From contig NC_043000.1 in NCBI RefSeq assembly GCF_006345805.1, positions 111,538,001 to 111,602,000 on the forward strand: a stretch of 64,000 nucleotides of DNA, written 5' to 3'. The stretch is from Octopus sinensis (Eukaryota). How positions within the stretch are numbered: position 1 is the stretch's first letter; every line of letters starts with the position of its first letter. The notes under the pieces are model-generated. The model was not told where the DNA came from and searched no databases. It saw only the letters and a program-made list of their open reading frames with translations. A program made the translations under genes and the position numbers. Of this stretch, positions 32,701-35,700 are shown piece by piece.

Positions 32701-35700
32701 CATTGTTATTGCTTCAGTTAAAAGGTAAAAGTTGTTCTTTTAAACAAATTGACTGCAAGTTTTTTTTCAATTAAAGCTGACATTTTGACAGTGTCTCTTT
32801 GACACAGGGGTTAATTAACACAGAATTTTAAAAACAGAAAAAGAGTTTGAAGGTCAGATTTATCACATCAAACGGTCAGCAATTGCTACAGACATTGGCT
32901 TCAAATTGATTTCAGGATGAAAAAAAGTTCGCTAAGTGCAATAAGTTCGTTATGCGCAACAGAAGCAATATTAGTTTAAAATAGCAATCAATGTATCATA
33001 ATCAAAGCAGACACATCCCGTAAAGCTAAATTAACAGTGGTATTCGTCCTGAGATTATATCTCTTATAGATGTACAATGTTTAAAAAAATGGGAATATCA
33101 CTGTCTAGCAATAAATTAATTTGCCTAATGAATGAAAAGACGAACTTTTCAGACGAGGCCATTTGTCTGAGAGACAAGGGAAGCTTCTTGTCTGAAATTT
33201 TAGATTTCATCTCTTTGTCGCGATCAAAATAATCATTGAATTTTCTGAATTTACTAATCTACTCTTTAACGTCGATTGTCCTGGGTAGGACTTTAAATTG
33301 CATTCGGTTGCAGCACCCTGGTTCAGGAGTTTCATGGTTTTGAGTAGTGTTGAGCCTCCTCTTTAATACAGGTCTACGCTGACGCGGGGTAGTCGCACCT
33401 GTATATATCTATACACGTAGAAATGTACGTGTGTGTGTGTGTGTGTGTGTGTGTGTGTGTGTGTGTGGACAAACCAACGGAAGAGGTACTCAACACATTT
33501 AGTAAGGGTTACGTATTTACGTATTATTTTAAACAGTTTGATTTGGTCTCGTACAATGTAAGATTTCGTAGGCTTCTCAAATCAATCTAATTCGTCGGAC
33601 TCAGATTCTGAGCCTGACGAATCGAAATAATCACGTGTGTGCATGTGTGTGTGTGTGCGTGTGTGTGTGTGTGTGTGTGTGTGTGTGTGTGTGTGTGTGT
33701 GTATGTAACTATGTATGTATGTATGTATGTATGTATGTATGTATTTATATATGTATGTATATATGCATGTTTGTATGTATGCATGCATGTCATTAATACT
33801 AAGTGAACAAAGATGAACCATCCCACTTCCACTGCGCGCGCACACGCACATATACACACAAACACACATACGCACACACACACGCACACACACACACGCA
33901 TTCACATACCTCACTTTTACATACAAACACAGAGTTGAAACGCTGTTTGATTTATTTTTTCTGCGTACAGTTTTCATCATCCCACTACCAAGTATGACAT
34001 CACCCCTTCCTTCCTTATTCATAAACACAAGAGTATTATTATTATAGTAGATTATCTCAGTAACCATGGGAGCTATGAGAAAATACAAATATGTGTATAT
34101 ATATATATATATATATATATATATATATATATATATATGGTAGAATTCACAAAAAAACAAAAGACAAAGACAGGTGATGTAGACAACAAACATATGTATT
34201 AGTATAACGCTCGGGAAGTGAAAAAGTCTTTAACGTTTCGAGCCTACGCTCTTCCACAGAAAGAAACCAGGAGAGAAAATAAAGAATATGTAGTGGCTAG
34301 CGATCTATCATATATAGTACCCACCACCCCAAAAAAGAAGTATAAACAATACAAAAAACCAATAACGAGGACGATTTCTTAAGCTGGGGGTGATATTGTT
34401 TGCAAATACGGCAAAATAAATGTTAGTTTCCTGACTTTTATGAAATTATTCACTGAATTGCAGTATGGGGTTGTTAGGTTATGGAAAAGTCATAACTCTA
34501 ACACACACATACATATATCTGTTTGTCATATAATATATATAAGTGGCATTATATATATATATATATATATATATATATATATATATATAATATATATTAT
34601 ATATATATATATATATGTATGTATGTATAGATGGATGGATGGATGGATGGATGGATGGATGGATGGAAGGACGGACGGACGGACAGAAGATTCACACCAT
34701 TTGATGTTATAATAGTAAAGTACAAGAAAATTTAATTAAAATATGACGTTTATTGCTCTTTTCTGAAGTTCGTTAAAGACGTAAATAAACTGAAATATTC
34801 ACAATCGGGAATGAGGGAAAACACTATGACTGATTGAAGTGATGACTGACTTGGGATGTAATGAAACTTGAAATTGTTCAATAAATCAACGGAAGAAAAT
34901 CGATTAGGAAATAACAACGACCCCGGAGATTGTGTATTGTATAATGTTACTTACCTCGATAGTTTCTCGATTTTGTTTTTTATGGAGTTTATAGAACACA
35001 GACCAAATGTTTCTCCTGTAAATCCATCATCCTTTGTTGTACAACCCGGTATATCCACGTAACCTGCGCTTAAGCTGCAAAACACGCAATGAAGAGAGAA
35101 CACAATATGAAAGTTGAGATATTTTTAGTTGGCTCGAAAATCACGAAGAATCTAAAGAATCGTTTCTGACACACTTAAATGCGGTCAGTCTGTTGACAGA
35201 CGTGGCCAAACTTGTTGAAGCAATATGATAATATTCAAATGTTTAAGTGTTCGTAGACATGAAAATCCACCCGTTACAATTTTGTTGCAATATATACTCG
35301 ATATACTGTCGAATGTCTTGACTAAAAAAAAAAGATTTACGCTGGGTGTGTCGGGTGTGGTAGAATAAATTATAGATTATTACAATGTATAAAAAGAACG
35401 GATTAAAGGATTACCTGTGCCCCAGGAGGCGGGTTGAGGTGATAATACCAAGGTTTTCAGATCCACTGTTCACAACAGATGCGGAATATTTACCACTGCA
35501 TATACCACTCATGTACGTTATACCTAAACCGGGTGGGAAAATGAGAAAACATTGGCACTCGATAAGGTAGCGTATTTTAGTCTAGATCAGCGGTTCTCAA
35601 CCATTTTTAAAAATTCTTATTCCACTCGGATGGGTTCTCATAGCCATTCGATGTTTAAGATATATTGCATATTTATAATTAAACATAATTAGGAATTGTA

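Follow-up and report, generated by a model that had tools for sequence, protein, structure and literature searches.

MIG-17 and Sona, the systems closest to the gene described here, consist, in the accessible parts of PMC4856095 and PMC4989167, of a signal peptide, a pro-domain, an M12B domain, a disintegrin-like domain and a small C-terminal Cys-rich module, and have no membrane anchor; in MIG-17 the order is signal, pro, protease, disintegrin and PLAC (PMC4856095). The accessible part of PMC11232982 describes MIG-17 as secreted as a proform, localized to the basement membrane and freed of its pro-domain by autocatalysis. Both proteins need the catalytic Glu, and catalytically dead point mutants of MIG-17 and Sona largely fail to act (same parts of PMC4856095 and PMC4989167), so there is no ready-made role for a dead copy.

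Dead relatives are nonetheless known. In the M12 pseudopeptidases—ADAM11/22/23, ADAM2/7/18/29/32 and UNC-71—the reprolysin fold is retained while the zinc ligands and the general base are replaced. According to the accessible part of a review of pseudometallopeptidases (PMC11266112), in which molluscs and cephalopods have no passage, these proteins work by binding and as a rule keep the Met-turn, the M being present in all eight that are listed. Snake-venom metalloproteinases that are inactive and have motif substitutions have also been published (PMC5086652, accessible part), and ADAMTSL proteins and papilin, named in the accessible part of PMC4989167, are secreted, non-catalytic matrix proteins related to ADAMTS.

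The gene that we analyzed in Octopus sinensis, LOC115210557, compares with each of these in a different way. Its product has the build of MIG-17 and Sona but lacks the Glu, two His and the Met-turn, and it has an added Thr-rich linker and a polybasic tail. Like the M12 pseudopeptidases, it combines a reprolysin fold with replaced zinc ligands and general base; unlike those single-pass membrane ADAMs, it is secreted, has no transmembrane segment, belongs to a MIG-17-like branch and has lost the Met along with at least 7 residues of the Met-turn loop. ADAMTSL proteins and papilin have a thrombospondin-containing ancillary region and no protease domain, whereas the octopus protein shows the reverse, a pseudo-protease domain without any thrombospondin repeat. 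The gene is therefore an unusual version of a known disabled-enzyme kind, distinguished by the Met-turn deletion, the secreted MIG-17-type build and the polybasic tail. We found no paper on LOC115210557 or on inactive cephalopod M12B proteins in a search whose coverage excluded most subscription papers, and the gene identifiers are in no main text found, nor in the searched parts of the supplements of PMC9712504, PMC10138644, PMC9699675 and PMC7693380, papers that may use other identifiers.

Gene structure and transcripts

LOC115210557 is a minus-strand gene that holds both exons of the zinc-site motif, encodes a product of 870 aa and is annotated as uncharacterized only. A homology search with one of its downstream exons led to an O. 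bimaculoides protein and to a second protein, P0002; the cluster of the former contains the LOC115210557 isoforms P0004 and P0005, an ADAMTS19-like entry (P0003) whose gene model is garbled at that exon, and Argonauta hians proteins. Spliced alignment places P0005 in 19 coding exons and P0004 in 20 on the O. sinensis genome, both letter for letter, over a span of ~118 kb in which every intron is GT-AG. The window—the whole 64,000-nt stretch of DNA that was analyzed—contains 15 constitutive in-frame exons from 59721 to 5565 (54.2 kb) and one alternative exon (Table 1), which agrees with the initial annotation of 15 exons over 54 kb with frame and splice sites kept; the other four coding exons lie outside, exons 1–3 past the window end and the last ~13 kb before its start. 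The alternative 30-nt exon, skipped in all four RNA-like contigs examined, lengthens the end of the pseudo-protease domain by 10 residues, one of them an additional Cys.

Table 1. Exons of LOC115210557 in the window and the intron that splits the zinc-site motif.
Feature	Protein part or remark	Residues (aa)	Window positions	Strand
Exon 4 of 19	Pro-domain	138–191	59559..59721	-
Exon 5	Pro-domain/pseudo-protease junction, no basic cleavage site	192–227	46982..47090	-
Exon 6	Pseudo-protease domain	228–259	44957..45050	-
Exon 7		260–286	43494..43574	-
Exon 8		287–334	39374..39519	-
Exon 9	Joined to exon 10 in RNA contigs	335–347	36652..36689	-
Exon 10	Arg379 for His1, Leu380 for catalytic Glu, His383 kept	348–383	35415..35523	-
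Motif intron	340 nt, phase 2, GT-AG; position as in intact O. sinensis paralogue		35075..35414	-
Exon 11	Tyr389 for His3; Met-turn loop of 17 residues without Met	384–423	34955..35074	-
Alternative exon	30 nt (10 aa), in frame; RefSeq isoform X1 and O. bimaculoides model		25794..25823	-
Exon 12	Pseudo-protease domain end, ADAMTS_CR_2 start	424–465	16599..16722	-
Exon 13	ADAMTS_CR_2/disintegrin-like domain	466–500	13306..13410	-
Exon 14		501–517	11308..11359	-
Exon 15	First Cys-rich repeat	518–563	10397..10534	-
Exon 16	Second Cys-rich repeat	564–607	8494..8625	-
Exon 17	Thr-rich linker	608–660	6996..7154	-
Exon 18	Polybasic tail start; predicted Cys683–Cys697 hairpin between dibasic sites	661–719	5565..5741	-

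The gene is transcribed and spliced across the motif. Among 24 runs listed, 13 RNA-like ones (the type is the tool's guess, and the runs carry coded labels) had a share (0.24) matching the two motif exons alone. The motif junction was present, with no differing letter, in all four RNA-like runs examined, which come from four studies under two organism labels; each yielded one contig of ~3 kb that skips 35075–35414 and whose loose ends are the neighboring exon ends at 36652 (exon 9) and 16722 (exon 12). A fifth RNA-like run (X17) covers only part of exon 10, with no junction listed. The DNA-like runs X18 and X19 read unspliced through the intron and both exons (X19 as far as 35543) with 0 differing letters, and X17–X20 have letters near-identical to those of the window, plus repeat noise. 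One-base insertions at 35323 and 35390, both in intronic A-runs of DNA contigs of X18, X19 or X20, are allele or assembly differences without coding effect. A very high-copy dispersed repeat at 36126–36373, presumably SINE-like, swamps read depth in all four runs of one comparison. An alternative exon with an intact HExxH, which would have countered the initial annotation, was found nowhere in the gene span, whose coding strand contains two loose HExxH strings that lie upstream of exon 4 and have no family context around them.

A PIF1-like helicase fragment in intron 4 (49744–50088, +) is probably a Helitron remnant, and an open frame of 577 codons in the last intron (L002:2381-4111, -), which encodes a reverse transcriptase domain, is probably a piece of a LINE-type retrotransposon. 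Frames at 6042–6520, 11953–12600, 39967–41061 and 60580–61173 resemble Tc1/mariner transposase fragments by eye; three of the four had no Pfam match when scanned.

Loss of the zinc site and of the Met-turn

The motif comprises residues 378–391 of P0005, T378 and the 13 residues after it, and is split by the intron 35414–35075; aligning it directly with ADAMTS13 and ADAMTS1 chains set the register. Exon 35523–35415 ends in the codons ACC CGC CTC CTG GGG CAC plus AG. Exactly as initially read, His1 is replaced by Arg379 (CGC), the catalytic Glu by Leu380 (CTC) and His3 by Tyr389 (TAC), while His2 is retained as His383. The Gly position is Ser386, and here the initial annotation, which counted Gly-to-Ser as part of the dismantling, went too far: Ser is an ordinary family variant, since of the 128 homologues whose three His and Glu are all intact, 26 have Ser and 90 have Gly at this position. 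The reported loss of the Met-turn did hold, there being no Met between residues 352 and 479. We took the Met-turn loop as the stretch between the His3 position and the next conserved FSxCS-type element, which could be measured in 137 of 144 homologue rows. This loop has 17 residues and no Met in the octopod clade but 24–41 residues in the 133 other rows, 129 of which have the Met; on these alignments, its shortening is confined to the octopod clade among the rows measured. P0005 thus falls short of an active metzincin in its set of three zinc histidines, in the catalytic Glu and in the Met-turn Met, and we infer that it would be unable to bind a catalytic zinc or to cut.

That the protein is still an enzyme, through other metal ligands or through RNA editing that restores the motif, is very improbable. 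His383 is kept, Asp328–His329 and Cys395 are conserved, and RNA editing is heavy in cephalopods (PMC7761149, accessible part). However, Asp328, His329, His383 and Cys395 are shared by the whole family and hence kept for structural reasons, and a codon check indicates that A-to-I editing cannot yield His or Glu at codons 379, 380 and 389. The RNA contigs, which drop rare variants, have 0 differences, the gene span offers no intact exon in exchange, and the general base and the Met-turn are both gone.

A survey of the family puts these losses in context. Searching cluster representatives without a profile recovered 470 proteins at E <= 0.001, with bit scores dropping from 1632 (P0002) to 249 (next). 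The domain was present in 153 of the 155 proteins that we examined; the 144 that cover at least 60% of the profile were retained and 11 were dropped. Among these 144 rows, the zinc histidines and the Glu are complete in 128, and 16 are dead: the four members of the octopod clade and 12 others. The homologues with names come from bivalves, gastropods, chitons and octopods, and several mollusc ones are annotated "mig-17-like". No named orthologue from squid, cuttlefish or nautilus appeared in the homology searches, in which 50% clusters could hide one behind P0002.

In a quick maximum-likelihood tree built with the motif columns removed, and with MIG-17 and Sona outside its rows, the octopod clade sits on a long stem of 0.84, divides into crown branches of only 0.047 and 0.12 and has an SH-aLRT of 100; as the tree has it, the gene changed fast and then froze. 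Of the other dead rows, 10 group in one clade, and the remaining two are a Solemya row and a second O. sinensis gene, so that dead copies, on this tree, stand at several places in the family. These dead M12B paralogues (Ostrea, Crassostrea, Sinanodonta, Dreissena and Solemya; LOC115227129 and C8:48.25 Mb in O. sinensis) belong to the same mollusc family and have a destroyed zinc motif, but they differ from the octopod clade in their substitutions, in their places in the tree and in keeping the Met-turn Met in 12 of 12 rows. The lineage-specific character initially claimed is accordingly true of the Met-turn loop shortening, which is clade-only, and not of zinc-site loss, which recurs in other molluscs. 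The clade of 10 (P0015, P0054, P0124, P0106, P0078, P0079, P0086, P0061, P0093 and P0123), whose named members are bivalve and which is sister to intact gastropod proteins, is a second, wider pseudoprotease lineage; the tree gave no support for orthology between it and the octopod clade.

The O. sinensis genome itself contains two more dead family genes, on C1761 and at C8:48.25 Mb (the pair that includes LOC115227129), which are single long ORFs of 668 and 646 codons, keep the Met-turn and the basic cleavage sites and have no basic tail. Intact paralogues are also present. One is a single long ORF on C12269, and another, on C13296, is spliced, its motif lying over two exons with the intron at the same phase-2 position after His2; spliced intact paralogues rule out the notion that an intronless copy is the sole intact paralogue. 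At two further loci the second half alone of the motif was seen, apparently intact. Of the O. sinensis family genes with a fully readable motif, three of five are dead, counts that are lower bounds.

Maintenance of the dead gene

The dead motif, with His1, Glu and His3 lost, is common to O. bimaculoides, Argonauta hians and P0002, whose identities to P0005 are 854/870 (98%), 537/565 (95%) and 691/863 (80%), respectively, and P0002 keeps 25 of 25 mature cysteines, as the initial statement that structural cysteines are kept would have it. In place of a codon-based dN/dS, we simulated neutral change on protein divergence in 3000 runs. At the P0002 level (19% protein divergence) none of the 3000 runs was stop-free, the mean being 8.3 stops, which argues against a decaying pseudogene, and only 10 of 3000 kept all cysteines. 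Against O. bimaculoides (2%) or Argonauta (5%) alone, the no-stop test is not significant (0.40 and 0.10), and the dead motif stayed unchanged in 9% of neutral runs, so no special constraint on the motif itself is demonstrated. Divergence is uneven across six domains (chi-square 33.7, 5 df, p 2.8e-6): 118 of 120 residues are identical in 511–630, the Cys-rich repeats and what follows, and 29 of 30 in 691–720. The twin Cys-rich repeats are, by this comparison, the most conserved part of the protein.

A recently disabled gene that decays as a transcribed pseudogene, or an artefact of assembly or annotation, has a negligible chance of explaining these data. The gene is annotated only as uncharacterized, and the long stem branch does record a past burst of change; but the frame is open, all cysteines are kept and the same dead motif is found in at least four lineages up to 20% divergence, and the DNA and RNA contigs, which are independent, do not differ by a single letter. 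At the level of transcript and sequence, this is a pseudoenzyme in the accepted sense, with catalytic residues lost and the gene transcribed and constrained. The view that LOC115210557 is a maintained pseudoprotease and not a decaying pseudogene is therefore very probably correct, the gene being spliced, free of an intact alternative exon and strongly non-neutral in its divergence by simulation.

Domain build and possible functions

Sequence and predicted structure both place the protein in the M12B fold. PF01421 (reprolysin) matches with 30.4 bits against a cut-off of 20.8, and ADAMTS13 aligns with an E of 1.3e-8. The AlphaFold model (mean pLDDT 70.5, pTM 0.56) is confident over most of 30–600 and has most of the tail disordered. 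Its residues 29–434 best match the pro-domain plus protease of ADAM17 (Z 24.2, rmsd 4.3, 319 aligned); isolated reprolysin domains and ADAM22 match with a Z of 20–22 (20.6 for ADAM22) and the domains of ADAMTS-1/-5 with a Z of about 21 and an rmsd of 2.4–2.7. The pro-domain and the pseudo-protease domain are thus predicted to fold together like a zymogen, a packing that the model may have learned from known zymogen structures.

The label "ADAMTS-like" in the initial annotation does not hold for ADAMTS in the strict sense, for no TSP_1 match was found at E up to 1 in P0005 or P0002, and what follows the disintegrin-like domain is not a thrombospondin repeat but two helical Cys-rich repeats. The build is instead of the MIG-17/Sona type, with a signal peptide (predicted from hydropathy only), a pro-domain, M12B and disintegrin-like domains and no membrane segment, and the nearest Atlas cluster is MIG-17 (0.94; 199/256 features). 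Only the N-terminus is hydrophobic, no 19-residue window exceeding 1.5 after residue 12; of the two locations first offered, secreted stands and surface-anchored does not. The Cys-rich repeats had no Pfam match, and a PLAC match was not obtained; they are modeled (pLDDT 78) as small helical units for which a structure search returned no fold match, which does not in itself imply a new fold. A basic site before the protease domain, searched with a loose pattern, is present in 114 of 127 other measurable homologues and in none of the four octopod clade members. The tail (673–870) has a net charge of +47, the next highest charge over the last 200 residues outside the clade being +31 among 174 stored proteins of at least 300 aa, and found no match in the Atlas.

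On balance, we lean toward the gene product being a secreted, non-cutting matrix adaptor that is permanently in the pro-form. With two zinc His, the catalytic Glu and the Met-turn absent, it would bind no catalytic zinc and cut nothing, and with neither a convertase site nor self-cleavage the pro-domain would be retained for life: a relative of MIG-17 that has no catalytic residues and no convertase site should stay capped, although the basic site is also missing in some active homologues (13 of the 127 measurable rows). The near-invariant twin Cys-rich repeats would bind a specific partner, and the basic tail, judging from charge alone, may tether the protein to polyanionic matrix such as sulfated glycans. 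The adaptor would then serve to link or place partners in the matrix and at the cell surface, not to remodel them.

It is also conceivable, though unlikely, that the protein is a decoy or regulator of its active paralogues, its exosite domains binding the same substrates, inhibitors or docking sites and so tuning or blocking matrix cutting. Intact-motif paralogues do exist in the same genome (the whole ORF on C12269 and the two exons on C13296), the fold and exosite-type domains are retained, dead copies stand at several tree places as expected of regulators, and pseudoenzymes often regulate active relatives (PMC11266112, accessible part). Yet identity to any active homologue is only about 25–35%, its cleft has a shortened lower wall, the pro-domain is predicted to be retained, and flies that express protease-dead Sona have no defect (PMC4989167, accessible part).

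The tail invites another reading, which we regard as doubtful: the folded part would be the carrier of a peptide precursor, and convertases would cut the basic tail to free, besides other products, a cationic peptide of 23 residues (aa 678–700), closed by a disulfide and amidated at its C-terminus, with a signaling or antimicrobial role. A Gly followed by a dibasic pair is an amidation signal. A dibasic pair before and Gly-Lys-Arg-Arg after Cys683–Cys697 are kept in O. sinensis, O. bimaculoides, Argonauta and P0002, the latter site being the only Gly-dibasic tail motif kept in all four, and the model has a two-strand hairpin at these cysteines. However, dibasic pairs are common in so basic a tail (13 runs from aa 676 on), an RKK lies inside 678–700, residues past the site are equally conserved, fitting one continuous basic module, the hairpin has a pLDDT of only about 60 and no Pfam or PDB match, and the near-invariant Cys repeats are left unexplained. 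The segment aa 678–704 (within 5565–5741, -) could be either a convertase-released amidated peptide or a glycan-binding module. An equally speculative combination would be an octopod, perhaps coleoid, two-part device in which a capped, Met-turn-less pseudo-zymogen with binding repeats is anchored in matrix while its tail is processed to an amidated disulfide-hairpin peptide of an undescribed family.

As a matrix adaptor, the protein would be a putative octopod matrix novelty with a defined binding module. Its Met-turn loop is deleted, yet the fold is predicted to be kept, which would make it a natural test of the structural role of the Met-turn. Finally, dead M12B genes are a recurrent finding in molluscs, and a protein listed as "ADAMTS-like" or "reprolysin" among octopus venom or tissue components should therefore not be taken for a protease unless its motif has been read.
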